From positions 1 to 32,034 of the forward strand of contig CAZFAZ010000010.1 of the NCBI GenBank assembly GCA_964517155.1: a stretch of DNA of 32,034 nucleotides, in the 5' to 3' direction. Origin of the DNA: an uncultured Thermoplasmatales archaeon. Lineage in GTDB: Archaea; Thermoplasmatota; E2; DHVEG-1. The position numbers were made by a program, and so were the translations under genes. Positions 645-31,980 of the stretch are shown here, in pieces. The notes below the pieces were generated by a model, which saw nothing but the letters and a program-made list of their open reading frames with translations, ran no database searches and had not been told where the DNA came from. The first letter of the stretch is position 1. Each line of letters starts with the position of its first letter.

Positions 645-895
645 CTATTTGCTAATCATGAAAATAATATTTGATAGGTGACATTATTTTGCTCGCAATC
701 TTTTTTAGATATAATCATTCCGCTTTAAAAACCAATAATAAGCTTTATTTAAATCGTTTTATTAATAAAATAATGAAAACATTGTTCATTCAGATTACTA
801 TGTCCTATCAGGGGAATAAAAACTTAAAGCTAGACTACATATAAAATCGTTTATATATGTAAACCCAGGATGTCGTTGTGAATTAAGATCTTTGG

Positions 896-1090: not shown

Positions 1091-1177
1091 TTATTTAACC
1101 ATTAGTTTTTTTTATGTTTGTATCAAATCAGGATAATAACTAATAACTATTTGTTATATGTGCCAGGTATGAATCAT

Positions 1178-3387: not shown

Positions 3388-3505
3388 TTTATTACTCTTT
3401 TTATGCAATGTAACTATTATCTACTTAAAAATCCATTTAAAATCAAAAAAGATTTAACTATATAGTTGTTTTTTTATATGTGATAAAAATGGGGCTTAAT
3501 CTTTT

Positions 3506-4822: not shown

Positions 4823-4849
4823 AACCAGCTTCTGCATACATTATTTAGA

Positions 4850-6136: not shown

Positions 6137-6192
6137 TAGTTATATGTCTTATCGAACATTTATAAAATTATAAAGTTTAAGAGATCTGAAAA

Positions 6193-7482
6193 ATGAAAAT
6201 TTTACTTATCCTTGCTCATACTGGTACAACTTATCATGTGGTCGATGAATTAATTTATAGATATTATTATCCTTCGCTAACATTAGGGCAGTTAGTTTCA
6301 ATAACTCCAGATCATCATAAAATTGAAGTTATCGATGGTAGATATCAGAAGGTAGATTATAATTGGGTAGGAGATATTGTAGGGATCTCGTGCAGAACTG
6401 TTGCTGCTAAAACTGCTTATAAAATTGCTGATAAATTTAGAGAGAAAGGCATCAAAGTTGTTCTTGGTGGTTGGCATCCCTCACTAATGCCTGAGGAGGC
6501 TAAGCAGCATGCTGATAGTGTTGTTATTGGTGAGGCTGAGGATACTTGGCCTCAGTTGCTTAGGGACTTTGAGAATGGTGAACTAAAATCTTTTTATCGC
6601 CAAACAAAGCCCGTTGATCCGCGAAGTATACCCTCCCCTGAAATAATTAAACAAAAACATATTTTTTGTATGCCTATCCAGGCAACTAGAGGTTGTCCAT
6701 ATGGTTGTAGTTTTTGTCCAGTTAGTACTTTTCAAGGAAAGAAAATTAGACTTAGGCCTATCGATGATATTTTGAAGGAAATTAAAGATGCTCCTACTAA
6801 AAGATTATATTTTGTTGATAATTCTCTTACAATCAATGTCAGTTATACAAAAGAGTTATTCCGTGAGATGATTGGATTAAATAAAAAATTTAGTTGCTAT
6901 GGAAATATAAATGTTCTTGGTGAAGATATAGAACTTTTAAAACTTTCAGCTGATGCCGGATGCGATTGTTGGATAGTCGGATTTGAATCAATATATCAAG
7001 AGACAATTAATAAAATTGGAAAAATAACTAATGTAGTTGAGAAATACCCCAAAGCAATCAAAAAAATGCATGATCACAATCTTATTATACAAGGCCTTTT
7101 TGTTTTTGGTTTAGATGATGATAAACCCTCTGTTTTTAGAGAGACACTAAAGGCCATTTATAAATGGAAACTAGATAAAGCCGGTTTTGCGATTAGGACA
7201 CCTTTTCCAGGAACAACAGAGTTTGATAAGCTAGATTCTCAGGGAATGATAATCTCTAAAGATTGGTCTAAGTATAATTTAAAAAATGTTGTTTTTCAAC
7301 CAAAAAATATGAATCCTGTAGAATTATTCAAGGGTACGAATTGGGCTATAAATAATTTTTATTCAAATACAAATCTAATTAAAAGAAACATTCAGGATAA
7401 AGAAATAAATTTAAATCGTATAATTAATAGAACGATATCAGAAGCTTTGTCAAAAAATTTGTATAAAATATTAGGTTTTTAA
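6193..7482 (+). CDS. B12-binding domain radical SAM protein, copy 3
   Basis: VVLGGWHPS...VIGEAE, TRGCPYGCSFC, GFES and TPFPGT. Confidence 0.9.
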   Translation: MKILLILAHTGTTYHVVDELIYRYYYPSLTLGQLVSITPDHHKIEVIDGRYQKVDYNWVGDIVGISCRTVAAKTAYKIADKFREKGIKVVLGGWHPSLMPEEAKQHADSVVIGEAEDTWPQLLRDFENGELKSFYRQTKPVDPRSIPSPEIIKQKHIFCMPIQATRGCPYGCSFCPVSTFQGKKIRLRPIDDILKEIKDAPTKRLYFVDNSLTINVSYTKELFREMIGLNKKFSCYGNINVLGEDIELLKLSADAGCDCWIVGFESIYQETINKIGKITNVVEKYPKAIKKMHDHNLIIQGLFVFGLDDDKPSVFRETLKAIYKWKLDKAGFAIRTPFPGTTEFDKLDSQGMIISKDWSKYNLKNVVFQPKNMNPVELFKGTNWAINNFYSNTNLIKRNIQDKEINLNRIINRTISEALSKNLYKILGF

Positions 7483-10941: not shown

Positions 10942-11802
10942 CTATAGTTTTTCTTCAATTCTTCTCCACATTTCAATTATTTTCTTTGATAAATCTGATT
11001 CTTTATCATATTCAATAATGTTTTTTTCATCAATTAAAGCCTTTGTAATAATTGTATCATATGGTATTTTTCCAACAACATCAATGTTTTTCTCTTTGCA
11101 GTATTTTTCTATTTTTTTTGTATTTTCAATGTTAATATCGTATTTATTTATGCATATCGTAGCAGGAATCTTAAAATGTTCTGCGACACCAATTATTCTT
11201 TCTAAATCACTTATCCCTGAAAGTGTCGGCTCTGTTATAATTAAAACTAAATCAACACCGGTTATCGCAGAGATTACAGGACATCCTATTCCTGGCGGGC
11301 CGTCAATTATTATCATATCTTTGTTTTTTTCTTTTGCAATTTTTTTTGCATTTTCACGAACAACGGTTACAAGTTTTCCTGAGGCTTCTTCTGCAGTTTT
11401 TAAAACGGCATGTGACATTGGTCCAAAACGTGTATCTGATATATATGAAAAGCCAGATTCTCTAGGAATCATTTCAATTGCATCAACAGGACATACATAC
11501 TGGCATACTCCGCATCCTTCGCAAGATGCTTTTTGAATAATCATTCTTTCAGTTATAGCATTAAATTTACAGTTTTCCACGCATCTTTTGCATTCAATGC
11601 ATTTTTTTGTATCGATTTTTGCAAGCTCTAGTCCATAAAAACTCATTGTTTTTTTTACTTCTGGTTTTAATATGAGGTAAAGATCTGCAGCATCAACGTC
11701 ACAATCAGCAAAAACAGCGTTTTTTGCAAGCGATGCAAATGTGCCTGTGATACTAGTTTTTCCAGTGCCGCCTTTGCCGCTTATCACTGTGAGCTCTTTC
11801 GT
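10942..11802 (-). CDS. MinD-superfamily P-loop ATPase with inserted ferredoxin (COG1149-type); apparent ACG start
   Basis: (T)KELTVISGKGGTGKT, DCDVDA, two CxxCxxCxxxC motifs, DGPPGIGCP and TEPT. GGAGGT lies 6 nt upstream of ACG at 11802. The next possible start is GTG at 11787. Confidence 0.85.
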   Translation of the reverse strand, partial: TKELTVISGKGGTGKTSITGTFASLAKNAVFADCDVDAADLYLILKPEVKKTMSFYGLELAKIDTKKCIECKRCVENCKFNAITERMIIQKASCEGCGVCQYVCPVDAIEMIPRESGFSYISDTRFGPMSHAVLKTAEEASGKLVTVVRENAKKIAKEKNKDMIIIDGPPGIGCPVISAITGVDLVLIITEPTLSGISDLERIIGVAEHFKIPATICINKYDINIENTKKIEKYCKEKNIDVVGKIPYDTIITKALIDEKNIIEYDKESDLSKKIIEMWRRIEEKL

Positions 11803-12635
11803 TTTTCTACCTCCTCTGAAATTTCTTTAAATATTTTTTTAAATTCATTTTTCCAGGTGGGGATGCTTTTGATAAAAGGTATTCCTTTTGAGTACAACTC
11901 GGCTATCTGAGCGCTTTGAGGGATTTTTAATAAAATAGGAATTTTTTCATGTTTGCAGTATAATTCTACTTTGTTGTCGCCTACTCCATCGCGATTTATA
12001 ATAACACCAAATGGTATATCTAGTAGTCTTACTGTGTCAACTGCAATTTTTAAATCATTTAGCCCAAAAGGCGTGGGTTCTGTAACAAGAATGCAATAAT
12101 CTGAGCTTGTAACTGTTTCAACAAATGGACAAGCAGTTCCAGGGGGTGCGTCTAGAATTACATTTTTATTTACATCAATTTTTTTCTTAAGAGCCTTCAT
12201 CACAGGTATTGCTTGTGCCTCGCCTATATTTAATAAACCTTGGTAAAAATCAATATTTTCTTTCTTCCCATGCTCTATTTTTCCGATAGATCTAAAACTG
12301 TATTTTACAGCTTTTACAGGGCAGATTAGAGCACAGCCGCCGCATGAATGACATAGCTCTGGAAAAACAAGCACATCTTTTTTTAATACAGCAAGTGCAT
12401 TGTATCTGCAAAACTCTGAGCATTTGCCACAAAAAGTACATTTTTCCTTATCGATTTCAGGGATTAGTACATTAACATTTTCTTCTTCAAAAATCTTTGT
12501 TTTTAAAAAAATATTTGAATCAGGTTCTTCTACATCAAAATCAAAAAACTGAACATTTCCTATACTTCTCGCAAGGTTTGTAGAAACTGTGGTTTTACCA
12601 GTGCCTCCTTTTCCACTTGCAACAGAAATTATCAA
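11784..12635 (-). CDS. MinD-superfamily P-loop ATPase with inserted ferredoxin (COG1149-type)
   Basis: VASGKGGTGKTT, DVEEP, CTFCGKCSEFC, CHSCGGCALICP, DAPPGTACP and TEPTPFG. Confidence 0.9.
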   Translation of the reverse strand: MIISVASGKGGTGKTTVSTNLARSIGNVQFFDFDVEEPDSNIFLKTKIFEEENVNVLIPEIDKEKCTFCGKCSEFCRYNALAVLKKDVLVFPELCHSCGGCALICPVKAVKYSFRSIGKIEHGKKENIDFYQGLLNIGEAQAIPVMKALKKKIDVNKNVILDAPPGTACPFVETVTSSDYCILVTEPTPFGLNDLKIAVDTVRLLDIPFGVIINRDGVGDNKVELYCKHEKIPILLKIPQSAQIAELYSKGIPFIKSIPTWKNEFKKIFKEISEEVEKRKSSQ

Positions 12636-12650
12636 TAGTTTTACACCTTT

Positions 12651-13055
12651 TTAGTGGTAGTGATGACCTTGTTCATGGTCATGTTCGTGTTCTCCACGAA
12701 ACGCATGTTGTCCGCATGCATCTGATTCAGATGCCTTTGTAAGCTGTCCTTTTTTGTATGCATCTATTGCATCTTTTACGGTACCACTTGCACCAATGTA
12801 TACATCTATTCCAAAATCATTAAACATGATTATTGCTCGTCTTCCAAGACCTTGACATATCATTACGTTTACGCCATATTCTGCTAAAACTTCTGGAGGG
12901 TTTTTTATTCCACCCATATGATTGCTTGTATTTGGTATTACTTTTACATCATTTTTTTCTAAATCAACTATTGTATAGGTTGACACGCGTCCAAAATGCT
13001 CGCCAACATAATCGTTTAGTCCTTTGTCGCTATTTGTAGGGATACATACTTTCAT
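12651..13055 (-). CDS. NifB/NifX-family (FeMo-cofactor-binding fold) protein with His-rich tail
   Basis: HFGR...YTIVD and GLGRRA, with C-terminal CGQH...EHEHDHEQGHHYH. Confidence 0.85.
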   Translation of the reverse strand: MKVCIPTNSDKGLNDYVGEHFGRVSTYTIVDLEKNDVKVIPNTSNHMGGIKNPPEVLAEYGVNVMICQGLGRRAIIMFNDFGIDVYIGASGTVKDAIDAYKKGQLTKASESDACGQHAFRGEHEHDHEQGHHYH

Positions 13056-13060
13056 TTTTT

Positions 13061-13426
13061 TCACCTTATTCCACTATGGCTATTTACATTTGATGAGTTG
13101 GTTTCACTAAGTTCATTGTTTTTGTATTTATTGACAGCATCTTTTATAGTACCTGTTACTCCTGTAAAAACTTTTATACCTGCAGCTTTAAGAGTACTAT
13201 GTGAATTTGGTCCTATGTTTCCAGTGAGTACTATTTCTACGTCTTGATTAGCAATTGTTTCAGCAGCTTTAATACCTGCTCCTCCAGATGCCATAACACT
13301 TTTGTTAGATACTACTTTGAATTTCATGCTTTCTGAATCTACAATTATAAAGTATTTGCATCTTCCAAAACGCATGTCGATATTAGAATCTAAATTGTCC
13401 CCTGTTGATGTTACTGCGATTTTCAT
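13061..13426 (-). CDS. NifB/NifX-family protein (Orange protein-like)
   Basis: MKIAVTS...RFGRCKYFIIVD...GAGIKAA...LTGNIGP. Confidence 0.88.
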   Translation of the reverse strand: MKIAVTSTGDNLDSNIDMRFGRCKYFIIVDSESMKFKVVSNKSVMASGGAGIKAAETIANQDVEIVLTGNIGPNSHSTLKAAGIKVFTGVTGTIKDAVNKYKNNELSETNSSNVNSHSGIR

Positions 13427-13482
13427 AATATTTCTCCCTTATTTTATGTTAATATTAAGTGGTGTTAATAATTGTTTGTATT

Positions 13483-13668
13483 TCATACACGGCTCATTGG
13501 TGCACCACATTTAGGACATTTCATGGTATAACATGGTGTAGCTGGGTGGTGCGGCTCTCTGTGCCCACAGTTTGGGCATATGCAGTCTCCACCTGGGCCC
13601 ATGCCAAAACCTTTTCTGTTTTGTCCACTCCCGCCTCCAACTGGGCCTGTTCCATCGCCTCCTGGCAT
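13483..13668 (-). CDS. Small DUF5320-like protein with double CxxC metal-binding module
   Basis: MPGGDGTGP start followed by CICPNCG...PC...KCPKCG. A GGAGGTG ribosome-binding site lies upstream. Confidence 0.75.
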   Translation of the reverse strand: MPGGDGTGPVGGGSGQNRKGFGMGPGGDCICPNCGHREPHHPATPCYTMKCPKCGAPMSRV

Positions 13669-13670
13669 AT

Positions 13671-14489
13671 TTATTTTTCACCTCCAATTATTTTTTCAAC
13701 ATTTTCTACAAATTTTTTATAGCTATCTATTGTGTTTTTATCTTTTATACTTGTTTTTTGCTTATTGTCACCTATTTCTACAATTTCTGGGTTGAGTGGT
13801 ATTGAGCCAAGATATGGTATTTTGAAGTCTTCTGCTGCTTTTTTACCCCCGCCTGTTTTGAAAATATTTACTTTTTCGCCGCAGTGTGGGCAAGTAAATC
13901 CACTCATATTTTCAACTATGCCAATAATTTTTAGATTCATTTTTTTGACAAAATTGATTGATTTACGTACGCTTACAAGTGCGACATCTTGAGGGGTTGT
14001 GACAATTATTACTCCTGTAATATCTGGTATTAATTGTGCGATGCTTAGTGGTTCATCTCCTGTTCCTGGTGGCAAATCAATAATGAGGTAATCTAGATCT
14101 TCCCAAACAACACCTCCCAGCAATTGTCTGAGGGCACCCATTTTCATAGGGCCTCGCCATATAACAGGGGCGTCTTTGTCTGGGATAAGATATGCCATTG
14201 ACATTACTTTTAACCCGTCTTTTGTTTTTACAGGAAGTATTCCATTGTTGCTCCCCATTGCTCTTTCTTCTTCAACTCCAAGTATTTTTGGAATGCTTGG
14301 TCCATGTATGTCTGAGTCTAGTATTCCTACTTTTTTTCCTTTTTCTGAGAGTAGTTGTGCTAAGTTTGCAGAAATCGTACTTTTTCCAACTCCGCCCTTA
14401 CCGCTTAGTACTACGATTTTGTTTTTTACATTTTTAAGGTTTTCTTTAACATCGAATTCTTTTTCTTGTGTTTGATTCATATTTATCAT
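13671..14489 (-). CDS. mrp: Mrp/NBP35 (ApbC) Fe-S cluster carrier ATPase
   Basis: SGKGGVGKST, DSDIHGPSIP, VIWRGP, DLPPGTGD, VTTPQ and ENMSGFTCPHCG. Confidence 0.93.
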   Translation of the reverse strand: MINMNQTQEKEFDVKENLKNVKNKIVVLSGKGGVGKSTISANLAQLLSEKGKKVGILDSDIHGPSIPKILGVEEERAMGSNNGILPVKTKDGLKVMSMAYLIPDKDAPVIWRGPMKMGALRQLLGGVVWEDLDYLIIDLPPGTGDEPLSIAQLIPDITGVIIVTTPQDVALVSVRKSINFVKKMNLKIIGIVENMSGFTCPHCGEKVNIFKTGGGKKAAEDFKIPYLGSIPLNPEIVEIGDNKQKTSIKDKNTIDSYKKFVENVEKIIGGEK

Positions 14490-14543
14490 CCATTTTACAT
14501 TAGATTAAGCTCTACGACTAATAAATAAAAGAAATAAAATTGT

Positions 14544-14873
14544 TTAGTTTTCTTTTTTTAGTTCTTCCAGTCTTTTTTTCATTTCTTTTAGGTCTGCTTC
14601 TATTGATTTTATGCTTTCTTCTAGATAGTGCTTTTCTTCGTCTTTTGTTGGTTTCGGGTATTCTGGTCTGTATATTGGTGCTGGTTCATAGTATGGCTCA
14701 GGATAGTAAGCTCTGCGCCAAAATCCTCTGCCGCGTCCACCGCCTCGGCCGTATCCTCTTCCTCGAGGCATACCTTTTGTAAAACCGGGGCTGTTGTATC
14801 CTTTACAGTATCCAAAAGCTCGACCTGTCATAGGTCCTCTTCCTTCAGGGCCTGTTCTGTCTCCACCTGGCAT
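14544..14873 (-). CDS. DUF5320-family protein
   Basis: MPGGDRTGPEGRGPMTGRAFGYC start, Gly/Arg-rich middle and C-terminal coiled coil. Confidence 0.85.
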   Translation of the reverse strand: MPGGDRTGPEGRGPMTGRAFGYCKGYNSPGFTKGMPRGRGYGRGGGRGRGFWRRAYYPEPYYEPAPIYRPEYPKPTKDEEKHYLEESIKSIEADLKEMKKRLEELKKEN

Positions 14874-15207
14874 CTTCTTTATTCACCTCCTTTTCATTTC
14901 TTTGGATGTGTTCATTTCCTTGGATGCTGATTTGGTAGCCATTTACAAGAGCGTTTATTACTTTTTTTCTAGCTTTTTGAAGGTCGTTCCATAGTGTTTT
15001 TCTGGAAACACCCATCATCGCTGCTGCTTCTTCCTGGGTGAGGTCTTCTAGATCTACTAGTCTTAATGCTTCTAGCTCGTATATTTTTAAGATTATTGTG
15101 TTTTGAGGCTGCTGGTATCCATCTGGTGTAAAGTCTTTTGTGTCATGTGGGTGATTTACCCAACGCATACCTCGGCAGCGACCTCGTCTTCGTCCGTATC
15201 CTGACAT
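14845..15207 (-). CDS. DUF134 (UPF0251) predicted HTH DNA-binding protein
   Basis: ELEALRLVDLEDLTQEEAAAMMGVSRKT...ARKKV..ALVNG. Confidence 0.88.
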   Translation of the reverse strand: MSGYGRRRGRCRGMRWVNHPHDTKDFTPDGYQQPQNTIILKIYELEALRLVDLEDLTQEEAAAMMGVSRKTLWNDLQKARKKVINALVNGYQISIQGNEHIQRNEKEVNKEDARWRQNRP

Positions 15208-15230
15208 GTTTTAACATCCTATACTAATTA

Positions 15231-15254
15231 CTCATATGAGAACTAATATATAAA
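15231..15254 (-). promoter_or_regulatory. Putative TATA box and palindromic operator for the ORP-like operon
   Basis: TTTATATA on the minus strand (15254-15247) is followed 6 nt downstream by the perfect palindrome CTCATATGAG (15231-15240), upstream of the DUF134 start. Confidence 0.45.
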
Positions 15255-15329
15255 TATTTCTACAATTTGAACTTGTTTTTATAGTTTTCGGAGTAATCTT
15301 ATCACCACCTTTTTTATTACAGCTAAAGT

Positions 15330-20448: not shown

Positions 20449-21553
20449 ATGATTACAAAAAAGGTCGAGTGTCCAAAATGCAAACAAATCTTTACATCAT
20501 CTGGTAACCCGGGTGACATCATAAGGACAATTTGTCCTTCTTGCGGTCTTGCAGGAAAAATTATTTTTGAAAAAACTTTTTCATCAAGTATTATAAATGA
20601 AAACGCCGCATTAGGAGTTATCAATCTTAGAAAAGAATATGGTAGCCTTGTAGCAGTAAACAATATTTCTTTTTCTGTTAAAAAAGGTGAAGTATTTGCT
20701 TTTCTTGGCCATAATAGTGCAGGTAAAACTACAACTGTTGAAATGATTGAATCAATTAGACAACCAACCGCGGGAACAATAAAAATACTTGGAAAAGACA
20801 TTAACACATCTTTTGTTGATGTAAAAGAAAAAATTGGTGTACTTCCGCAGGAGTTTCATTCCTTTGAAAGACTTACCGTAAAAGAAACCTTAGAATTTTT
20901 TTCAAAGCTTTTTAAGAAACGTGCAAAAATAGATGAAATAATTAATGCTATGGATTTAAAAGATAAAGAAAACACACTTTACATGAATATTTCTGGTGGT
21001 AGAGAACTAATTAAGATAAACGATGTTGAAACAATCACTGGTGAGTTTAGCTTTATTGATTTCTTTTTACCAGGTATGATTGGTTTTACTATAATACAAA
21101 CCTGTATTTATGGTAGTCTTGAGCGTAATACAAAATTTAAAAAAGATGGAATTTTAAGAAAACTTTTAACAACGCCGATTACTCATTCTGAATGGATTTT
21201 TTCAAAGATGTTTTTCCAGTTGTTTTTATCGTTTGTATCTGCGGCTTTAATCATTGTTTTAGGGGTGTTAGTTTACGGCATTAAAATTAATATTAACATC
21301 TTTATGATTTTGATAATTATTGGCACAAGTTTTCTTTTTACAGGAATAGGTATGCTCATCAGTCGTTTTGTAAAAGATGAGGACTCTGCAGGTATGGCTG
21401 GTGGTGCTGTTACTGTTCCTATGATGTTTCTTGCAGGAACTTTTTTTGCACTTGAGCAGATGCCAGAGTTTTTACAAATAGTTGGCTGTAATCATTTTTG
21501 CAGTGGTTTTCTTTGTATCTAGTTTAATTTTAACTAAGTGGAAGGAAGATTAA
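20449..21553 (+). pseudogene. Deletion chimera of an ABC exporter ATPase (with N-terminal Zn ribbon) and an ABC-2 permease
   Basis: CPKC/CPSC, then an altered Walker A (GHNSAGKTT) and Q-loop. The ATPase stops at the ISGG signature (~21000) with no Walker B or H-loop and runs into a permease C-terminal half. The apparent permease end LAVIIFAVVFFVSSLILTKWKED* is out of frame (21482-21553). Confidence 0.8.
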
Positions 21554-21702
21554 GCTGTTTTTCTGAAACTTGTATTTTGAAAAAGAAAATTTTGATTTGC
21601 AATAAACAATTTGTGTGCCTTTTCCTATTTCATTTATGCCTACATGCAGATTTATTTCATGTTCTAAAAAAAATGTTTTTTAGTCTGTTGGTAAATGTTA
21701 AT

Positions 21703-22266
21703 TCAATATCTTTTAAAACCAATCCAACGCGAAGTTTTCTTCATATACTCCTTGTATTTTTCACCATATTTTTCAATACAAAACTCTTCTTCATATCCAA
21801 CATATAAAACTATTACAATCATGTAAAAAATTGTTATTATTAGGAAAATTAAGGAGTTTGACATCAATACTATTCCAACATATGCAAAGAAAAATGAAAG
21901 ATACATAGGATTTCTTGAGTATTTGTACATCCCCATCATAACGAGACTATCCGCCGATGTTTTTATCCAGCTTATACAAACACTGATGGCAATAATTATT
22001 CCAATAGTCCATAAGACAAATCCAAAATTAAAAAAAACTGTATCAAAAACTATTGGTGCTAAAAAGCTTACAATAACTGCGAGTATGAACATAATTGATG
22101 AAAGATTATATAGAAATCTAAAAAAGTTATCTCTTTTAATTTTTTGGGAAGAATCTTCATGTTTGTTCTTTTTTTTATAAACAGAAGGAATAACTGTTAT
22201 TATAATATAAACTATTAAGAAGAGATATGCATTCATTAATCCTAATTCAAAGGTAGTATACATCAA
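21703..22266 (-). CDS. Isoprenylcysteine carboxyl methyltransferase/PEMT-family membrane methyltransferase
   Basis: Multiple transmembrane segments, LVMMGMYKYSRNPMY and EE...KYGEKYKEY...RW. Confidence 0.85.
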   Translation of the reverse strand: MMYTTFELGLMNAYLFLIVYIIITVIPSVYKKKNKHEDSSQKIKRDNFFRFLYNLSSIMFILAVIVSFLAPIVFDTVFFNFGFVLWTIGIIIAISVCISWIKTSADSLVMMGMYKYSRNPMYLSFFFAYVGIVLMSNSLIFLIITIFYMIVIVLYVGYEEEFCIEKYGEKYKEYMKKTSRWIGFKRY

Positions 22267-22437
22267 TTTTTAACCTTATTTTCTTTCTTAAAAAGATTGT
22301 TTTTCCAGAATACATACAAATTTTAATTATAAAATAATTTCCCTTTTAATATTCCCTAACATTATTTCTGTTTAATTTATTTAGGAAAAAATGAAAATAA
22401 AGAAATAAATTAGATTTTTTAATCAGTTGAATAAAGA

Positions 22438-22524
22438 TTATGCAATTGGGCACTCTGCAACATGTAGAGATCCATATGTTATTTCTTTATCTACAGATTT
22501 CATTTTTGGCTTTGAGTATTTCAT
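22438..22524 (-). CDS. Candidate RiPP precursor peptide, 28 aa: MKYSKPKMKSVDKEITYGSLHVAECPIA
   Basis: ATG at 22524 and TAA at 22438-22440. GGGTTGAT ribosome-binding-like site 6 nt upstream, a TATA-like box at 22607-22614 and a T-rich tract downstream. It carries a YxxP leader motif and lies near the PqqD and radical SAM genes. It is below the ORF-track length cutoff. Confidence 0.75.
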   Translation of the reverse strand: MKYSKPKMKSVDKEITYGSLHVAECPIA

Positions 22525-22562
22525 TTTTTTATCAACCCACTTTATAATTTCAATTTTATTTC

Positions 22563-22614
22563 TCGTATATCTAATTTATACGATATATATCTATATTAAT
22601 CTACTTTATATAAA
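22563..22614 (-). promoter_or_regulatory. Putative promoter and inverted repeat upstream of the precursor gene
   Basis: Minus-strand AAACTA-TTTATATA (TATA at 22614-22607) and TCGTATA-N7-TATACGA at 22563-22583. Confidence 0.4.
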
Positions 22615-22771
22615 TAGTTTTCCTTACAATAGTATAATACTTTGATTTTTGGACAATATAGTCTGTTGTAGTAAAATTTGTTTTGTCCAACTATCTTTTT
22701 CGTATACTACATTCAACACCGTAAACTTACAAATGATGAAAATAAACAAAATTTTAACTTAAACGCTAAAG

Positions 22772-23797
22772 TTAAGAAGAAATATGTTTTAAAGAATGAT
22801 AAATTTTAAAAGAATTTTTAAAGAAAAGTAGTATTGCAATTATTAAAAATATAGCTGGTATAATAGAACATGTTAAAATACAAAGGAGCAAAAAAACTAA
22901 GAATGACCACAACATCGTTGAAATCGGAAGGAAAAAATTTATGTTTTTTTGTCTTAAATCTTTTAGTTTGATGTGTCTTAGCCATAAAATCATAAGAACA
23001 GGAAACACACCTAAAAAGGAAATAGTAATAACATCTAGATAAAACTTATAAACACATAAAAATAATAATAAAATCCATAAAATAATAGCTGCATGAATTG
23101 TCCAGTTATAACCAAGTAGTACATTAGTAGGTTTTATTCCAAATTCTGCATCTGTTTTAATATCTCGCCAGCTTATAAGTAAAGTATAAGAAATAACAGG
23201 AATGCCCATTATTAATCCGAGAATAAAGATGTCCATACTTGTCTTTGCTCCGCTAGTTAACCATCCTAAAACAAAAGGTAAAGAGCCGAAAATTAACATA
23301 TTTGAAACAATATCTATCAGCGGTTTGGTTTTAAATCTAACAGGAGGCATGGAGTACAAAAATGTGATAATAACAAGAATCGAACCCATAATAAAAACCG
23401 TGAAGTCAAAATAATGCCACAGAAAATATAAACCAACAACAGAACAGATAATTGATGATATTAAAAGTTCTTTATCTGAAATATATTTGAATATCCACAC
23501 ATTATGTTTTCTTGCAAAAATATCAAGTTTTTTATCAAATAGAAAATTGGTAAAACCACTAACAAACTCAGCCAATATTAAAAAAAACATCATTATTAAA
23601 GTAGGATAAAACAAAAATTCTTTTATCGCCCACCATTCTCCTAATAAAAAAAATGAAATAGTAATAGGAATTGTTGGTATTCGCGAAGCAACAAGATATG
23701 CTAAAATTTTTCTTTTTAAAAGGTTTGAACTTGGATTCTTGATATTTTCATCGTCGATTTTTTTTCCCCAAAAAAATTCTTCGAAATTTTCAGCCAT
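22772..23797 (-). CDS. UbiA-superfamily membrane prenyltransferase, copy 1
   Basis: NFLFDKKLD (NxxxDxxxD), YSMPPVRFK, RDIKTDAEFG and many transmembrane segments. Confidence 0.87.
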   Translation of the reverse strand: MAENFEEFFWGKKIDDENIKNPSSNLLKRKILAYLVASRIPTIPITISFFLLGEWWAIKEFLFYPTLIMMFFLILAEFVSGFTNFLFDKKLDIFARKHNVWIFKYISDKELLISSIICSVVGLYFLWHYFDFTVFIMGSILVIITFLYSMPPVRFKTKPLIDIVSNMLIFGSLPFVLGWLTSGAKTSMDIFILGLIMGIPVISYTLLISWRDIKTDAEFGIKPTNVLLGYNWTIHAAIILWILLLFLCVYKFYLDVITISFLGVFPVLMILWLRHIKLKDLRQKNINFFLPISTMLWSFLVFLLLCILTCSIIPAIFLIIAILLFFKNSFKIYHSLKHISS

Positions 23798-23861: not shown

Positions 23862-24905
23862 ATGGATAACCGTGATACAACTGACTTCTCCAGTAACGAT
23901 ATAAACATTGACGGTTTTAAAATAAAAATAGATGATTTTATAGAAGAAAAAATACTTCCAGATCATTTCAACTCACCATTTATTGGACAATGGGAAATTA
24001 CACGAGAATGCAATCTTAGATGCATATTTTGTTATAATAATTCAGGAGAAAAACATTCTAATGAATTAACGCATGAACAAAAAATAAACGTTGCAAATCA
24101 GATTGTAGACGAGAAGATATATAGAATGTGTATAAGCGGAGGAGAACCTATTCTTTGCGAGTCTTTTTGGGATATCGCCAAAATTTTAAAACAAGGAAAC
24201 ATCTTTTGCAATACTATAACTAATGGATGGTTTGTAAACGAAGAAAATTCATCTTTATATGCTAATTATTTTAAAAGTATTCAGATTAGTTTAGATGGCA
24301 GAAAAAAAGATACCCACGATAAATTACGGGGTAAAAAAGGTAGCTGGGAAAAAGCTGTTAATGCCTGCAGACTAATCAAAGAGGCTGGAGGCAGGATATC
24401 CATTGCAACAGTCGTAAATCCGATTAATCTATCTGAACTTGAAGAATTAATTGATTTTACATACAGCCTAGGTGCAACAGATATGCGACTTGATGAAGTG
24501 ATATTTACGGGCAGAGCATCAAACAGAACTTATGATGATATTTCTTTATCTGAAAAACAATCATCTCAGCTGGAAAAAATAATAAAAAATAAAAAAAATG
24601 AATATAATGAAAAAATGTTTAATGTCGATATCGTGCCCAAAACACAATATAATTATGTTAGGGGTTTTGCAAAAATCCCGCCGTTATCTATTTATATTTC
24701 ACCAACCGGCACATGTGCAATTGACCCAGTTCTTCCTTTTTCAGGTGGTTCTTTAAAAGAAAAAAATCTAAAGGAAATTTGGAATGAACTTAAAACAATT
24801 CATAAAAATAAGGATTTCATAAACTATTCACTAAAAATAAAAACAGGTAAAGATTTTAAAAATATTGACAATATCCCCTACGCCAAAGGTGAATTACATG
24901 ATTGA
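23862..24905 (+). CDS. PqqE/MftC-like radical SAM protein with degenerate SPASM/twitch region
   Basis: WEITRECNLRCIFC, SGGEP, TNG, QISLDG...HDKLRG..GSW and TGRA. The C-terminal IYISPTG...GSLKEKNLKEIW retains only one Cys. Confidence 0.87.
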   Translation: MDNRDTTDFSSNDINIDGFKIKIDDFIEEKILPDHFNSPFIGQWEITRECNLRCIFCYNNSGEKHSNELTHEQKINVANQIVDEKIYRMCISGGEPILCESFWDIAKILKQGNIFCNTITNGWFVNEENSSLYANYFKSIQISLDGRKKDTHDKLRGKKGSWEKAVNACRLIKEAGGRISIATVVNPINLSELEELIDFTYSLGATDMRLDEVIFTGRASNRTYDDISLSEKQSSQLEKIIKNKKNEYNEKMFNVDIVPKTQYNYVRGFAKIPPLSIYISPTGTCAIDPVLPFSGGSLKEKNLKEIWNELKTIHKNKDFINYSLKIKTGKDFKNIDNIPYAKGELHD

Positions 24906-25191
24906 TAAAAATCTTAAACCAAAACTTGCAAAAGACATAGTATACAAAGATGAAGGAAAAGATGGGGAGACTATAAGCATGGCAAGCTACATAGGTGGCC
25001 CAATTAGAATTTTAAATCCAGTTGCAAGTAAGGCTGTTAAACTTTTAGATGGGAAGCATACAATTCAAGAAATTATAAATGAAATATGTGACTCATTTGA
25101 GGATGCCGATTTAAAAACAGTAGAAAATGACATAATAGAATTTTTATTAGATCTTGAAAAAAAGAAAATTATAGAGCCGTTAAAAAAATAA
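24898..25191 (+). CDS. PqqD-family RiPP recognition element (RRE)
   Basis: LNPVA...LLDGKHTIQEII..I...F....VENDIIEFLLDL...II pattern in a 97-aa protein. It has an AAGGTGA ribosome-binding site and overlaps the radical SAM stop codon. Confidence 0.87.
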   Translation: MIDKNLKPKLAKDIVYKDEGKDGETISMASYIGGPIRILNPVASKAVKLLDGKHTIQEIINEICDSFEDADLKTVENDIIEFLLDLEKKKIIEPLKK

Positions 25192-26154
25192 TTATCCTCT
25201 AACATATTTTGTAAATATAAAAATATCGTAAATTGTAAAAATTATCCAAATCACTAAAAAGAAAAATGGGAAAATATTTTTTGAAAAAAAGCTTAGAAAA
25301 ATTAAGATAACACCAGCAAAAATTAAAGTGCTTAAACCCCCAACTATATTTACCAACAATTTACGATTATTTCTATAAACAAAAGCAAGAGCTATAAGAG
25401 GGATATATGTCAAAAGAGAAATTACCAGCAAATCAGCAATTCCAAAAAAACAGATTGCTATAACTAAATCTGTTATATATATGATAGCTCCTAATATAAG
25501 AGAATTTTTTAAACCTATGATATTACAAGAAGTTCTTATGCCTAACTCTTTATCCCTCTGTATATCAATTGTTGTATAGAAAAAGAAAATATGCGAAATA
25601 ATTAAAAAAAGAATTAGAAAATAAATCATAGAGCCAAAGGTTAAAGGATTTAGTAGTATCATCCATCCCATGAAAAAAGGAACAGACCCACCTAATGCAT
25701 TCATTAAACAATCAAATGGTGGTTTTGTTTTAAGTCTAATAGGAGGAGTAGAATAAAATACGCCTATTATAACTATTAACAATCCTAACAAAAAAACTTC
25801 AACATTTATAAAAAAATATAGAAATAACAGAGGAATGACTGATAAAAAAACAGACACGACCAGCATTTCTTTTGCAGAAATATATTGAAATACTCTAACA
25901 ATAGGTTTTCTTGCAAAAATATCAAGTTTTTTATCAAAAACTACATTTATCAAAGAACCTGCTGAAAAAATTCCTAAAAGAGATAACAATACAATTAAAG
26001 TTTGAAAAAATGGGAATTCTTGTATAGAATACCATTCACCTAAAAGAAAAAAAACTGATACAAGAAACCAACAAGACAGTCTAAATGATTTAAAATAAGA
26101 AATAAATTTATTTTTTAAAAAAATGGATTTTGAATTATTTTTTTCTTCAACCAT
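25192..26154 (-). CDS. UbiA-superfamily membrane prenyltransferase, copy 2
   Basis: NVVFDKKLD, YSTPPIRLKTKP and DIQRDKELG. It is a paralog of 22772-23797. Confidence 0.87.
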   Translation of the reverse strand: MVEEKNNSKSIFLKNKFISYFKSFRLSCWFLVSVFFLLGEWYSIQEFPFFQTLIVLLSLLGIFSAGSLINVVFDKKLDIFARKPIVRVFQYISAKEMLVVSVFLSVIPLLFLYFFINVEVFLLGLLIVIIGVFYSTPPIRLKTKPPFDCLMNALGGSVPFFMGWMILLNPLTFGSMIYFLILFLIISHIFFFYTTIDIQRDKELGIRTSCNIIGLKNSLILGAIIYITDLVIAICFFGIADLLVISLLTYIPLIALAFVYRNNRKLLVNIVGGLSTLIFAGVILIFLSFFSKNIFPFFFLVIWIIFTIYDIFIFTKYVRG

Positions 26155-26261: not shown

Positions 26262-27518
26262 ATGATTAGCGACAAAAATCTATTAAATAAATCTTCTAAA
26301 GAAAAACATATTATTGATAATGTACCTTATGTTGGTCAAGATAACAGTATTTTTTGTTCATATGCTTGTCAAACAATGATTATGAAATATTATGATAGAA
26401 ATGTTAACTTAGACGATTTTGTTTTTAACTCAGGAGTAAGTTATTCATCAGGCTATGTTAAAGATTATTTTAACTATTTTCCAACTTGTGGAACTTTTTT
26501 ATCACAATGGCCACTTGATAGAAAATTTGTAGCAGATATTTATGGTTTAGAGTTTGAAACATGGTTTCCAAATGTTTTAAACAGTTCAGTATCTGAAATC
26601 TGGAATATTTACTGGGAAAAAATAAAATCATATGTCAAAAATGATATTCCTGTATCTACAGCAGTAGATTTAGTATCTCTACCTGCCTTTAGAACGCTTA
26701 TGGATAGTCAATTGTGGATAAATGCAAAAAAAATCCCAAATTTTGCATGGAATTTGGTTTCAACTGCTCATGAAATAGTAATTGTTGGATTTGATGAAGA
26801 AAATAAATTAGTTTACTATAATGATCCTGTTTCATTAAATCTAGGTAATGCCAAAAATGGGATATGTGCCTCTGTTTCTTTGGATATTTTTGTAAGGTCT
26901 GTTGCTAATGCAAAAGTTGGTAATTTTTTTCCTAACTTTATCATCAATACATATAAGGAGAAAAAATCTGCTTTATCGGATGATATTATTTTTAGAAAAT
27001 CACATGACAGAAATATACAAAAAATTAAAGGAAATCCTTTATATTATGATGAGAAATGGAGAAAATATCCACTTGGCATAAATGGATTAAATGAAATGAT
27101 TAAGGTTTTTCAAAGTACTGACGAAGCTAAAAATAAAGAATTAATATCAATGTATAAATTAGATAGCGTTAGAAAAGATTTTATGAAAAAGATTTCTTCA
27201 TTTTTTACTAAAAAATCAGACTCTCAATATCTAATTGATTCTCTTATAAATATCTATGATATTGTTTCAATTGAAAAAAAATACGCTTATGAATATTTAA
27301 AAAATCATGGCATATCCTCAAAAGAGTTAAATGATGAAATAGAGTTATTTGGTAAAGAAATAGAGAGATGGAAAGAAATTTCAAAGTTTTATTCACGTTT
27401 TTATAAAGAATTAATGTTTTCAACAAAAAACAACAAAGTTGAAAAATTTAATGAAAATGTAGTTTCAAATATTTCAGATATAATAGATATTGAAAAAACG
27501 ATGGCCAGAATTTATTAA
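26262..27518 (+). CDS. C39-like (papain-fold, BtrH-like) cysteine peptidase
   Basis: VPYVGQ....CSYAC..M.MKYY gives the oxyanion Gln and catalytic Cys. HEIVIVGFD...VYYNDP gives the His and Asn/Asp. A helical C-terminal extension follows and no signal peptide is evident. Confidence 0.75.
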   Translation: MISDKNLLNKSSKEKHIIDNVPYVGQDNSIFCSYACQTMIMKYYDRNVNLDDFVFNSGVSYSSGYVKDYFNYFPTCGTFLSQWPLDRKFVADIYGLEFETWFPNVLNSSVSEIWNIYWEKIKSYVKNDIPVSTAVDLVSLPAFRTLMDSQLWINAKKIPNFAWNLVSTAHEIVIVGFDEENKLVYYNDPVSLNLGNAKNGICASVSLDIFVRSVANAKVGNFFPNFIINTYKEKKSALSDDIIFRKSHDRNIQKIKGNPLYYDEKWRKYPLGINGLNEMIKVFQSTDEAKNKELISMYKLDSVRKDFMKKISSFFTKKSDSQYLIDSLINIYDIVSIEKKYAYEYLKNHGISSKELNDEIELFGKEIERWKEISKFYSRFYKELMFSTKNNKVEKFNENVVSNISDIIDIEKTMARIY

Positions 27519-27542: not shown

Positions 27543-28409
27543 ATGAACATGGATGATATAAAAATTGATATAAAGGGAGTATCAGAGACACTTTTTTTTA
27601 TTTTATATTCAAGAGCTATCGAAAGTCAATCAAAAGATCCAATTATACAAGATCAAAAATCTGTTGAAATCGTCAAAATCCTTGATAGATTTCTTTCAGA
27701 ATCTGATTCAAAAACACTTAAAAAACTTTATACTCGTAGTCTTTCAAAATATTATGTAGTTCTAAAAGCATTAAGAACAAAAAAATTTGATTGCTATGTT
27801 AAAGATTTTTTATCAAAAAATCCAAAGGGAGTTATCGTAAATATGGGGTGTGGACTTGATACAAGATTTCATCGAATCAATATAGGCAACGGAGAATTTT
27901 ATGATGTAGATTTACCTGAAGTAATAAGTTTAAAAAAGAAATTCTTAAAAGAAAATGATAGGTATCATTTTATTAGTTCTTCACTACATGATTTTAGTTG
28001 GATGGATGTTTTATCAAAATATAAAGACGGTTCGTTTCTGTTTCTCGCTGAAGGGGTCTTTCAATACTTTTATGAAAATGAAGTAAAATCACTACTATTT
28101 GAATTACAAAAAAAATTTCCCGGATGTGAAGTTGCATTTGATGTTACAAGTACATTTACGAAAAGAAAACAAAATAACAGATTATTTAATGCTTATTTTA
28201 AATTTATGACAGGTTTAGATCAAACTGTAAATATTAAATTTGGCATTAAAAAAAGTCAAGAGATTTCTTCTTGGAATGATAGCATTGAATTATTAGATGA
28301 GTGGAATTTTTTTGATAAAGAAATAGATAAATTAAAATTTTTTAAGTTATACAAATTTTTAGAATCTGTAAGAAAAAGTGATTGGATTATACACTACAAA
28401 CTAAATTGA
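27543..28409 (+). CDS. Class I SAM-dependent methyltransferase, LCM/TcmP-like family
   Basis: SETLFFILYSRA, VNMGCGLDTRF, DVDLPEVI and LAEGV. Confidence 0.87.
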   Translation: MNMDDIKIDIKGVSETLFFILYSRAIESQSKDPIIQDQKSVEIVKILDRFLSESDSKTLKKLYTRSLSKYYVVLKALRTKKFDCYVKDFLSKNPKGVIVNMGCGLDTRFHRINIGNGEFYDVDLPEVISLKKKFLKENDRYHFISSSLHDFSWMDVLSKYKDGSFLFLAEGVFQYFYENEVKSLLFELQKKFPGCEVAFDVTSTFTKRKQNNRLFNAYFKFMTGLDQTVNIKFGIKKSQEISSWNDSIELLDEWNFFDKEIDKLKFFKLYKFLESVRKSDWIIHYKLN

Positions 28410-28791: not shown

Positions 28792-29627
28792 TTTCTTATC
28801 CCCCAAATTTTAAAATATTAATAATATAAAAATTATTTTCCGTAATTTTTTTATTTTTTCTATTTCTGATGTTTTTATACTAGATTATTCTTGTTTTTTT
28901 AGAAATCATATTCAAATTCTTTGAAATATGATTTCATCATTTTGTATATAAATTTACGTAAAAACAGAATCCGTGGTATTAGTTTTAGTTTCCTTGGTTT
29001 AACATATTTATTAAAGTCCTTATCTGTTTTCATATTAAGAAAATCCAAAATTTTTATAATAACTTTATTTGGTTCCATGCAGAGTTTTTCATAGTTGATT
29101 GAAATGTAATCTTCGTCTGATAGGTATTTAATATTTTTTAAAAAATACTTATTTGCTTTAGTAGAGTGCCAAATAATCTTAAAAACACCCAGGGGAAAAC
29201 AAGACGTGTAATATATCCTTGCTAAAAAAAGAGCTAAAGGATTTTGAAATAGTTTAGTATATTGTTCATAGTATAAGCCCATTAATTTGTCTTCGTTTTT
29301 AAATCGCGTTTCATAAAGTCTCAAGCTAGAGCTAATAACTTCAAGGGGGTTTCTATGAATAAATATAAACTTTGCGTTAGGGTAGTTTTTTTTTACGAAT
29401 AAAAAATTTGGATAATCATATGGGTTTTTCAAAAGTAATGGTTTGTTGTTATCTGATATATATCTAAGTTTTTTACATAACTCTTCAAATAATTGCTTGT
29501 TTTTAGCAGTTAATTTCCAAGGATAATTTTTCTGCGAAAAGATATACATATATTCATGGGCATAATCTGCTGTTACCTCTAATTCGTCTGTTTTCCTGGT
29601 TGTTATACCCATATTTTTAAATAAATT

Positions 29628-30898
29628 CAAGACTTTTGCACTTTTTCTAAATCATCCATAAATTACAGATAGAAGAACATCGTTTCCATCCTTCATTTAG
29701 GATGGGATGCAAAATATGTTCTTTACAAAAGAAATAGATGTTTTTGGTACAGCCCTTGGAAATTATAGGTATTGTTTTTCAAAACCGCAATGGAACCATT
29801 TCAACACTTATATGCATGGTCTTCTCTTAGGTGAACGGGGTGAGAAAAACATTCAGGATATCGCAGATAATCAGCTGCATGGAAGACATCAGAGTAGTTT
29901 GAACCGTTTTCTCACCCAGCCAAAGTGGGATGTTCGAAGATTAAATGCTCTTCGTATCAAGCAAAGTCTCTCCAATCGCAATGGTGGTGTCTTGGTTATT
30001 GATGACACCATCATAGAGAAATCTGGGGAACATATGGATGGTGTAGGTTATTTGTTTGATCATTCTCAGGGGAAGAGTGTACGGTGTCATGATATTGTCT
30101 CCTCTTTTTATCATAATGATGATGGTGTACATGTTCCCTTGTATTTCAGTCCTTATGTGAAGGAGGAACATGCCACCCGGTTAGGTATTTGGTTTAAAAC
30201 CAAGATACAAATCGCCCTTGATATCATCAGGAAATCCTTGCTGCAGATTTCTCCGGAGGTGGTGGTGTTTGATGCTTGGTATATGTCCAAAGAGTTGGTT
30301 GATTTTATAGGTTGCAGAGGTCTAAGTTGGGTGTCTCAGGCGAAAAGTAATCGCCTGATCCAGGTGGATGACACCTGGATATCAGTAAGTAGGTATGCAA
30401 AGGATTTGTCTAAACAATCCTTTAAGAGAATTAATACGACCCTGGATGAGCAACGGTTCAAATGGATGTATGAAATCAGTTTGGTGATGAAGAATATTGG
30501 GTTGGTGAAACTGATTATTCTTAGGGAACGACGGAACAGTAAAATCTGTACATTCTTGGTTTCCAACAACACAGAGTTGGATGGTTTGCAGGTGCTCGAA
30601 TACTATAAAAAACGCTGGGCTATTGAGGTTTTTTATAGGGATTGTAAACAGCATTTGGGAATGGGCGAGTATCAAGTAAGACGGCTTGACGCTGTAGTTA
30701 TACACCTACACCTTGTTGTTCTTGCTTATACCCTCCTAAAAAATGCCTGGCGCAATCCCTTTCTTACTACTCTTTTGAGTGGTGTGAGAGCGGTTGGTTC
30801 TGTTTGTAAACGGTTGAAACGTTGGGTGTTTATTCAATTAGCTGGGAGATTGAAAGAGCAAAGAAGTGTTCTTTCAACCTAAATCTGCAAAAGTCTTG
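29628..30898 (+). mobile_element. IS701-family insertion sequence, complete
   Basis: Perfect 13-bp terminal inverted repeats CAAGACTTTTGCA (29628-29640) and TGCAAAAGTCTTG (30886-30898). A direct repeat TAAATT flanks it (29622-29627 and 30899-30904), and it is visibly more GC-rich than its flanks. Confidence 0.9.
29707..30882 (+). CDS. IS701-family DDE transposase
   Basis: SSLNRFL, VIDDTIIEKSG, FDAWY and RWAIEVFYRDCKQHLGMGEYQVR. Confidence 0.9.
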   Translation: MQNMFFTKEIDVFGTALGNYRYCFSKPQWNHFNTYMHGLLLGERGEKNIQDIADNQLHGRHQSSLNRFLTQPKWDVRRLNALRIKQSLSNRNGGVLVIDDTIIEKSGEHMDGVGYLFDHSQGKSVRCHDIVSSFYHNDDGVHVPLYFSPYVKEEHATRLGIWFKTKIQIALDIIRKSLLQISPEVVVFDAWYMSKELVDFIGCRGLSWVSQAKSNRLIQVDDTWISVSRYAKDLSKQSFKRINTTLDEQRFKWMYEISLVMKNIGLVKLIILRERRNSKICTFLVSNNTELDGLQVLEYYKKRWAIEVFYRDCKQHLGMGEYQVRRLDAVVIHLHLVVLAYTLLKNAWRNPFLTTLLSGVRAVGSVCKRLKRWVFIQLAGRLKEQRSVLST

Positions 30899-31026: not shown

Positions 31027-31980
31027 ATGGGATGTGCGAAAAAACGAGTTAATCCAAAAATTTTGAACTATGTAAACCGAAACTTCAACGTATTGTACAT
31101 AAAAAGCACCATCAAAGCAGTTGAACAACTCCCACCACCATGGAAAACGAAGAAAAAAGGACGAAACGGACATGACCCAAAAGAAGTAGCCACTGGTTGC
31201 ATCCTCAAAGTAGGATTCAACCAAACCTATGATAGCATTGAAGCATACTTGAAAGAAAGCGAAACGTTCAAAGATCATTTCGATGACATACCCGGTCATA
31301 GTGTTATCCATCGAGGAATGAAGAAACTAACCACTCGATACATTCGAAAAATTACAAACCGGATCATCTGTTTTCTCAAACGAAAACACAAAAATGTTGC
31401 CGTGGACAGCAGCGGATTCAGCACGCATCACCACAGCCTCTGGTATGACATCAGAATTAAAAAAAGAGGAAAACGACGAGATTGCCTGAAATTACACATC
31501 GTTATCGATATTGACACGGGTATCATCCTCTGGTTTAAAAATACCCGGTGGAATCAACATGATTCACCCGTGTTTCAAAAACTCCTGAAACATCTCTCAG
31601 ATCTTGGAGCAGTCTTCGGAGATAAAGCCTATTCATCACGAGACAACTGTCAACTTGTGGCAAACAAAAACGGCGTACCTTTTCTCTGCTTCAAAGACAA
31701 TGCTACCAATCATGCCCATGGAAAACCTGCATGGATCGTTTCCATTCGTTCATACAAGAAAAACAAAGACGAATGGATGTCCGCGTATCATTTCCGATCT
31801 ATCGTAGAAAGCGTGTTTTCCTCCATCAAACGACGATGGGGTAGTTTCCTGAGAAGTAAAAAACGATGGATGCAACGAAAGGAGATATCCTTGAAGGTGT
31901 TATCGTACAATATCAAACAAGGATTACTAGTTCAATATGCAAAGGAAAGTAAGATTCCTTTGTGGAAAACGTGCGAATAA
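31027..31980 (+). CDS. IS5-family DDE transposase
   Basis: AVDSSGF, KLHIVID, HDSPVF, GDKAY and YHFRSIVESVFSSIKRRWG. Confidence 0.88.
   Translation: MGCAKKRVNPKILNYVNRNFNVLYIKSTIKAVEQLPPPWKTKKKGRNGHDPKEVATGCILKVGFNQTYDSIEAYLKESETFKDHFDDIPGHSVIHRGMKKLTTRYIRKITNRIICFLKRKHKNVAVDSSGFSTHHHSLWYDIRIKKRGKRRDCLKLHIVIDIDTGIILWFKNTRWNQHDSPVFQKLLKHLSDLGAVFGDKAYSSRDNCQLVANKNGVPFLCFKDNATNHAHGKPAWIVSIRSYKKNKDEWMSAYHFRSIVESVFSSIKRRWGSFLRSKKRWMQRKEISLKVLSYNIKQGLLVQYAKESKIPLWKTCE

Follow-up and report, generated by a model that had tools for sequence, protein, structure and literature searches.

The window considered here, a stretch of 32 034 nt from the genome of an uncultured Thermoplasmatales archaeon (1.585 Mb, 31.8% GC, in 91 contigs), carries on its minus strand, at 22438..22524, a reading frame of 28 codons plus stop that is a conserved coding sequence tied to a set of genes for a radical SAM enzyme, a PqqD-family protein and UbiA-family enzymes. 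That it is the translated precursor gene of a RiPP belonging to an undescribed archaeal class is, in our estimation, very probable (roughly 85%).

A small coding sequence in a 505-bp spacer

The frame runs from ATG (22524-22522) to TAA (22440-22438) and specifies MKYSKPKMKSVDKEITYGSLHVAECPIA. It occupies a spacer of 505 bp between the stop of a UbiA-family gene (22772) and the start of an ICMT-like gene (22266), with which it is co-oriented, and its ATG is 1338 bp from the start of the radical SAM gene (23862), which is followed by the gene for PqqD. In these respects the sequence-only reading that drew attention to the peptide, with its empty gap of about 500 bp and its distance of 1.3 kb to the PqqD/radical SAM pair, was accurate, although it overlooked the orientation, the peptide gene being on the strand opposite to that pair. 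The signals that it listed are also there, all on the minus strand: a ribosome-binding-like (SD-like) site, GGGTTGAT, 6 nt 5′ of the ATG (22531..22538); an exact TATA-like TTTATATA at 22613-22606; and, beyond the stop, a T-rich tract (about 22385..22413) that might serve as a terminator. The TATA-like box is part of a 24-nt BRE/TATA-like element, GTAAGGAAAACTATTTATATAAAG (22604..22627, minus strand), which is a candidate archaeal promoter for the peptide gene. The 17-mer GGAAAACTATTTATATA has a single occurrence in the 1.585-Mb genome. Purine-rich SD-like motifs were found 5-10 nt upstream of all eight peptide genes examined; the 3′ end of 16S rRNA, sought in the window's genome for an anti-Shine-Dalgarno comparison, was not found there. 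Scans of the window for tRNAs and Rfam families gave no match. The further claim that the gene had been missed by ORF calling holds for the first-stage ORF list, but not for public data as a whole, as one source, JGI/IMG, already lists an unnamed protein of precisely these 28 aa. Among the sequencing runs listed as containing the stretch there are two of DNA, both of them possibly its source, and none of RNA.

Taken alone, an ORF of 28 codons is not beyond chance in a spacer of 32% GC. Twelve ORFs of at least 20 aa overlap the 600-bp region 22200-22800, and TATA-like octamers are common (the genome has TTTATATA at a density of 0.265 per kb), and these facts speak for a chance ORF or a conserved non-coding (regulatory) element of the AT-rich spacer. 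Conservation as a coding sequence, on the other hand, does go beyond chance. In a set of 40 relatives the radical SAM gene has one orthologue, that of G024 (62% identity, E 6e-149, against 1.3e-35 for the runner-up), and the G024 peptide, the 30-aa MKYQKPKMKDVDKEITYGSQYFVLAIPGPD, is encoded between the C39 and LCM genes, not after the first UbiA gene as in the window. Over the 19 leader codons the two genes show eight synonymous and two non-synonymous codon differences, and their flanks cannot be aligned. A third genome, that of locus L052, has a radical SAM protein 86% identical to that of the window, the same gene order, and the peptide MKYTKPKMKSVNKEITYGSLHVPECPVG, whose leader differs from that of G024 by nine synonymous and three non-synonymous codon differences. 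Between the window and L052 the ORF, the GGTTGAT of the SD-like site, the 24-nt promoter-like element (identical in both) and part of the T-rich tract have been kept, and the remainder of the spacer has diverged, with indels. Synonymous changes thus dominate the leader; frame, start, stop and SD-like site are retained even though the place of the gene and its relative strand differ among loci; and there are 17 distinct homologous peptides. An origin by chance, or as a non-coding element, is therefore close to refuted. A six-frame scan of related loci for the conserved motif had been proposed with the original observation, together with lack of conservation as a ground for abandoning it: 17 distinct relatives with the shared leader emerged, and the ORF is conserved as a coding sequence in related clusters.

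The anatomy of the family (12 peptides aligned, and five more read by eye) is that of a conserved leader followed by a hypervariable core, which is the pattern of RiPP precursors. All 17 share a Y-x-x-P-K-(M/L/I) leader and, around position 18, a Gly that is followed three positions later by an aromatic residue; M1, Y3, P6, K7 and G18 are invariant. The aromatic residue is Y in eight peptides, H in four, W in four and F in one. The change from conserved to variable sequence falls at G-S or G-A in 14 of the 17 (G-T, G-V and G-Y occur once each), and the C-terminal 9-13 residues are hypervariable, the 7-11 that follow the aromatic position being variable and Pro-rich. For the window we accordingly propose a leader of residues 1-19, MKYSKPKMKSVDKEITYGS, and a core of residues 20-28, LHVAECPIA. 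Cysteine is absent from 13 of the 17 members; in the other four it always stands four residues from the C-terminus and is followed by Pro (CPIA, CPVG, CPVA and CPGL).

The gene cluster and its distribution

By Pfam assignment, the genes run in the order ABC protein (+), ICMT/PEMT-like (−), peptide (−), UbiA1 (−), radical SAM (+), PqqD (+), UbiA2 (−), Peptidase_C39_2 (+) and LCM-type methyltransferase (+). The ICMT/PEMT-family membrane methyltransferase gene (21703..22266, minus strand) lies 172 bp downstream of the peptide gene, and the first UbiA-family prenyltransferase gene (22772..23797, minus strand; PF01040, 67.0 bits against a cut-off of 34.2), which has orthologues in related loci, lies upstream of it. 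The radical SAM protein (23862..24905, plus strand) resembles peptide maturases. The PqqD-family protein, a RiPP recognition element (RRE), is encoded at 24898..25191 on the plus strand (PF05402, 42.9 bits; cut-off 23.4); the longest version of its ORF begins at TTG 24865, but the start conserved among orthologues is ATG 24898, and since this overlaps the radical SAM stop codon by 8 nt, translational coupling of the two genes is suggested. Then follow the second UbiA-family prenyltransferase (25192..26154, minus strand; PF01040, 88.6 bits, cut-off 34.2), a papain-like Peptidase_C39_2 protein that is a candidate leader peptidase (26262..27518, plus strand; PF13529, 51.5 bits, cut-off 24), and an LCM/TIGR00027-type SAM-dependent methyltransferase (27543..28409, plus strand; PF04072, 59.1 bits, cut-off 22.3) with orthologues in L052 and G024. 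The proteins of the cluster all score below the cut-offs of the NCBIfam models, and homology therefore assigns no reaction to them. The UbiA superfamily is defined by two Asp-rich motifs, and both UbiA proteins have them (NxxxDxxxD-like and DxxxDxxxG). In the C39-like protein, which is stand-alone and soluble, with some 230 C-terminal residues that have no family assignment, Q26, C32, H170, N187 and D188 are invariant in all six orthologues and are the putative catalytic residues.

Membership of the ABC protein (20449..21522, plus strand) is uncertain. In this ORF of 357 aa the ATPase part covers profile positions 1-113 of 137 and is joined directly to an ABC-2 permease part, so that it is possibly an odd transporter, truncated or fused. 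As a homologue (37% identity over 139 aa) lies 3′ of the PqqD gene in L059, the window protein may export the peptide. Close by, a hydrophobic plus-strand ORF of 89 aa (21538-21807), which shares about 100 bp with the 3′ end of the ICMT-like gene, matches no family and in L052 has only a weak match of 31 residues; it is probably not a gene.

Beyond the LCM gene are a sulfotransferase-like ORF (28899-29630, minus strand) and transposases of the IS701 (29707-30882) and IS5 (31027-31980) families. These transposases at the edge of the cluster fit its patchy distribution, a radical SAM orthologue being present in three of 108 genomes of the family. Elsewhere in the window, positions 1-7482 hold a second enzyme cluster, possibly another biosynthetic locus, with a partial radical SAM gene (3-644), a MiaB-like gene with UPF0004 and radical SAM domains (1118-2437), a sulfotransferase gene (2431-3408, minus strand) and tandem genes for B12-binding radical SAM proteins (3506-4822, 4850-6136 and 6193-7482). 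Positions 10942-15207 encode two MinD/ParA-type ATPases with 4Fe-4S domains, two Nitro_FeMo-Co (NifX/NifB-like) proteins, an NUBPL/Mrp-type ATPase, DUF5320 and DUF134.

Among 5.8 billion proteins there are 37 orthologues of the radical SAM protein (at least 43% identity and 272 bits), followed by a gap down to 175 bits. A metagenome scan with the alignment of these 37 gave 80 loci, 12 of them orthologous (L054-L065, at least 45% identity). One (L061) nearly duplicates the G024 contig and is not counted, leaving 14 distinct orthologous loci for which there is DNA: the window, L052, G024 and 11 metagenome contigs. Candidate peptides are present in eight of the 14, namely the window, L052, G024, L057 (two tandem copies), L065, L064, L060 and, weakly, L063, whose candidate (MVYIPPKIHEISPKMTVYMYT, after a UbiA gene) is recognized from the motif alone and whose sister contig L062 ends before that point. 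The six loci with no candidate are all on contigs measuring 1.6-5.6 kb, whose ends fall within the enzyme genes or just past them; in L056 neither the 336 bp past UbiA1 nor the 98 bp past the C39 gene contain a candidate, and this locus counts as a genuine miss, if within short flanks. When all six frames of 401 genomes sampled from the phylum were searched with the peptide profile, only G000 and G024 came below E 1e-3, and these are the two that have a radical SAM orthologue. Searches of protein collections with alignments of the peptides (one led by a natural 43-aa member) added P0056-P0060, and a further profile search added P0071-P0074 and P0080. Seven of the 16 matches of the exhaustive profile search were set aside as outside the family, because they are long, repetitive proteins in which the profile matched a number of short segments.

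One or two UbiA genes are found beside the radical SAM and PqqD genes in every orthologous locus that is long enough to reveal neighbours, with the exceptions of L059 and L060, and the larger clusters also carry the C39-like peptidase and the LCM-type methyltransferase. The G024 set comprises UbiA1 (abutted by gyrA), radical SAM, PqqD, UbiA2, C39 and LCM genes, and lacks an ICMT-like gene. Individual loci have features of their own. The peptides of L060 and L064 form a second subfamily (44% mutual identity, E 7e-12) with an internal YxxPx(M/I), and a gene for a 227-aa double winged-helix (HTH) regulator precedes the peptide gene in both (regions 1873-3342 of L060 and 1254-1937 of L064), with a heliorhodopsin gene just upstream in L060. 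The tandem precursor genes of L057 (13040-13259) differ by 1 nt in the leader and have different cores; beside them a clostripain (C11) peptidase is encoded in fusion with a Hint domain (13551-15329), and a sulfatase gene and two C39_2 genes are present in L057 as well.

Proposed leader recognition and the radical SAM enzyme

That the peptide is the substrate of the PqqD/radical SAM pair, as had been suggested from the window alone, is supported, in that the peptide family travels with orthologues of the pair. In the accessible parts of PMC13381572, [Y/W]xxPx[L/V/I/F/A] is given as the motif recognized by the discrete RREs of lasso-peptide systems, YxxP being essential for one RRE-precursor complex, and the part of PMC10906245 available to us describes binding of the N-terminal PqqA leader by PqqD. 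The likeness of the leader to this motif, which the sequence-only reading had pointed out, stands as far as Y3 and P6 are concerned (17/17), but Met8 of the window is outside the published set; four relatives have L or I at the hydrophobic position. The modelling of peptide with PqqD that had been suggested as a check was done with the G024 PqqD and its own 30-aa peptide, and it lends weak support: the predicted complex scored 0.54 against 0.02 for the best of three controls, with contacts agreeing by at least 85% between runs and a partner pLDDT of at least 52 (from own alignments). The mark that it passed is reached by 116 of 157 solved complexes and by two of 215 mismatched pairs, with passing scores of 0.60 or less coming from just 18 of the 157 solved complexes and from both of the mismatches that passed. 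The pass may moreover reflect likeness to known structures, because solved RRE-leader complexes exist.

The radical SAM protein is closest in sequence to RiPP maturases (SkfB, 6efn, E 2.4e-24; PqqE, 6c8v), and its model (pLDDT 87.3) has the same kind of fold matches, with SkfB first (TMq 0.67) and then SuiB and PqqE. The cysteines of its CxxxCxxC (C50, C54 and C57) are nearly invariant in the 37 orthologues. SPASM/twitch cysteines are typical of RiPP maturases, yet are missing here: PF13186 (SPASM) was not detected in the protein, no auxiliary-cluster set of cysteines was found, and the single Cys past residue 169 (C285) is not among the conserved columns.

The arrangement in the window and in L052, where the peptide gene has UbiA1 on one side and the ICMT-like gene on the other, shares their strand and is opposite to radical SAM/PqqD, might be taken to mean that this is a real small gene served by the co-oriented membrane enzymes (UbiA and ICMT-like) only, with the radical SAM/PqqD pair acting on a different substrate. 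We regard this as improbable, given that in L060, L064 and L065 the peptide gene is directly upstream of the radical SAM gene and on the same strand, that the leader has an RRE-type YxxP motif, and that the clusters yielded no other candidate for a substrate.

Our preferred reading is the RiPP precursor, and its maturation might proceed as follows. PqqD would bind the leader through Y3-x-x-P6-K-M8 and present the peptide to the radical SAM enzyme. The main site of modification would be the invariant aromatic residue at core position 2 (His21 in the window; Tyr, Trp or Phe elsewhere), through radical SAM chemistry, aromatic prenylation by the pair of UbiA-family membrane enzymes, or both, a prenyl acceptor being suggested because H, Y, W and F are invariant as a class and yet interchangeable. 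The C39-like cysteine peptidase would remove the leader after the G-S junction, a position that fits such a peptidase with its invariant Q26, C32, H170 and N187/D188, and the LCM-type methyltransferase, joined in the window's branch by the ICMT-like one, may methylate the product, which would be a short (about 9-residue), lipidated and methylated peptide.

Position among known peptide systems

The system has points in common with several that are well known, and matches none of them throughout. Lasso precursors that are served by a discrete PqqD-like RRE (B1) resemble it in the small precursor with N-terminal Y-x-x-P-x-hydrophobic sequence, in the stand-alone PqqD-family protein, and in having a papain-like cysteine peptidase in the cluster. 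They differ in that a lasso cyclase and a transglutaminase-like B2 were not among the Pfam matches of the 34 window ORFs; the peptidase here is of C39_2 type, and the window's cluster has radical SAM and UbiA enzymes instead. The residue before the proposed junction is Gly, whereas the abstract of PMC10368454 gives a penultimate Thr for lasso leaders. With double-glycine leaders and C39 peptidases there is similarity in the boundary after G-S or G-A (14/17) and in the presence in the cluster of a C39-like peptidase with conserved Cys and His; the C39_2 protein is, however, stand-alone and not the N-terminal domain of an ABC exporter, and the cleavage is a prediction.

The radical SAM protein is matched best, in both sequence and fold, by those of the SkfA/SkfB and SuiA/SuiB systems, and SkfB and SuiB are RiPP maturases acting on short cores. 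The identities are low, though (24% and about 14%), the auxiliary-cluster cysteines are missing here, and the RRE is a separate protein. Moreover, a thioether cannot be the family-wide reaction, because Cys occurs in only four of the 17 cores.

The combination of a short peptide, a PqqD-family chaperone and a radical SAM enzyme recalls PqqA/PqqD/PqqE and the mycofactocin proteins MftA/B/C, and the presence of PqqD, a radical SAM enzyme and UbiA-family enzymes together, with an invariant aromatic residue in the peptide, would suit the precursor of a peptide-derived, prenylated redox cofactor of that general kind. The NCBIfam scores are nevertheless far below those required (PqqE 95.4 against a cut-off of 381, MftC 104.7 against 265, PqqD 36.8 against 46); SPASM cysteines are lacking; no other PQQ-biosynthesis domain was among the Pfam matches of the ORFs examined; and of the conserved Glu and Tyr that mark the PQQ precursor core, LHVAECPIA has no Tyr. 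Cofactor precursors have near-invariant cores, whereas in this family the core is hypervariable, to the point that the aromatic residue itself may be H, Y, W or F. The rarity and patchiness of the cluster (three of 108 family genomes) and the IS elements that flank it also weigh against a cofactor, and we think such a role very improbable. The peptide-tail motif of a different PqqD/radical SAM/MenA cassette has three chance matches in this genome, none of them a small ORF. A signal or antagonistic peptide fits better than a cofactor, because the core varies from strain to strain.

The prenylated pheromones of the ComX/ComQ type offer another comparison. ComQ is a soluble trans-IDS-like enzyme, and ComX is made without a radical SAM or RRE step; the enzymes here are, by contrast, two membrane proteins of the UbiA family. 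What the systems share is a very short core, a single fixed aromatic residue in a polymorphic sequence, and a prenyltransferase encoded alongside (as described in the accessible part of PMC13290415).

The four peptides with Cys raise a further comparison, with eukaryotic CaaX processing (a-factor and Ras), since there is a Cys at −4 (CPIA in the window), an adjoining gene for an ICMT-like methyltransferase, and a prenyltransferase gene upstream. The Cys branch (the window, L052, P0059 and possibly P0072) might conceivably be an archaeal counterpart of this processing and give an a-factor-like lipopeptide: a membrane UbiA-type enzyme would S-prenylate the Cys at −4, the three residues beyond it would be trimmed, and the adjacent ICMT homologue would methylate the new prenyl-cysteine carboxylate. 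We consider this rather unlikely. The ICMT-like protein does give a full-length match to the Methanosarcina ICMT homologue (PDB 4a2n, E 1.6e-8), but the family model that it passes is PEMT (38.6 bits, cut-off 25), and the ICMT-specific models fall below their cut-offs (PF04140, 18.4 against 24; NF040696, 52.5 against 160); and because there is also a weak match to a model for MddA, a thiol methyltransferase, S-methylation of a thiol is an alternative. The prenyltransferase is of UbiA type, not the soluble alpha/beta enzyme of eukaryotes, which, like an Rce1/Ste24-type protease, was not among the Pfam matches of the ORFs examined, and 13 of the 17 family members have no Cys.

The distribution of ICMT homologues bears on the same point. 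Orthologues of the window protein (48-73% identity) are on contigs of 58192, 7101 and 18643 bp, and these would be, on the sole basis of equal sizes, the contigs of L052, of the radical SAM protein P0003, and of the radical SAM protein P0005 together with the Cys-containing peptide P0059. The Cys-less loci G024 and L057 have no ICMT-like gene in the sequenced neighbourhood. ICMT homologues occur more widely, in 62 of 401 genomes of the phylum (E ≤ 1e-8), and at 15 loci of other full-length homologues (L135-L149) there was no consistent adjacent ORF with a YxxP start or a Cys at −4, which indicates that there is no general tie between ICMT homologues and such peptides. From the absence of ICMT near Cys-less peptides and of any pattern elsewhere, it follows that the link between Cys and ICMT rests on one clade of closely related clusters. 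If the CaaX-like scheme were nevertheless true, a prokaryotic ICMT homologue would have a physiological substrate, and a peptide would for the first time be the substrate of a UbiA-family enzyme.

In the literature searched, as judged by titles and abstracts, no link between the UbiA family and ribosomal peptides, and no UbiA-type peptide prenyltransferase, was found. A review of peptide prenylation from 2026 (PMC13290415) does not mention UbiA in its accessible text, and the available portion of a survey of archaeal RiPPs (PMC12144867), in which products beyond lanthipeptides are described as scarcely characterized, mentions neither PqqD nor prenyl groups. The archaeal lipoprotein enzymes AliA and AliB are, in the part of PMC12462473 that is accessible, possibly derived from Lgt and not from UbiA. 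RiPPs themselves are already known, and what is supported here is a RiPP class with UbiA-family enzymes in archaea, the chemistry of which we infer from the genes.

An unannotated spacer thus becomes the key gene of a biosynthetic cluster, and one that joins RRE-guided radical SAM chemistry to membrane prenyltransferases of the UbiA family. With leader and core defined, it becomes possible to reconstitute the pathway. Precise predictions about a new chemistry of peptide lipidation follow from the invariant aromatic position and from the Cys/ICMT branch, and that branch may also point to a natural substrate of prokaryotic ICMT homologues.
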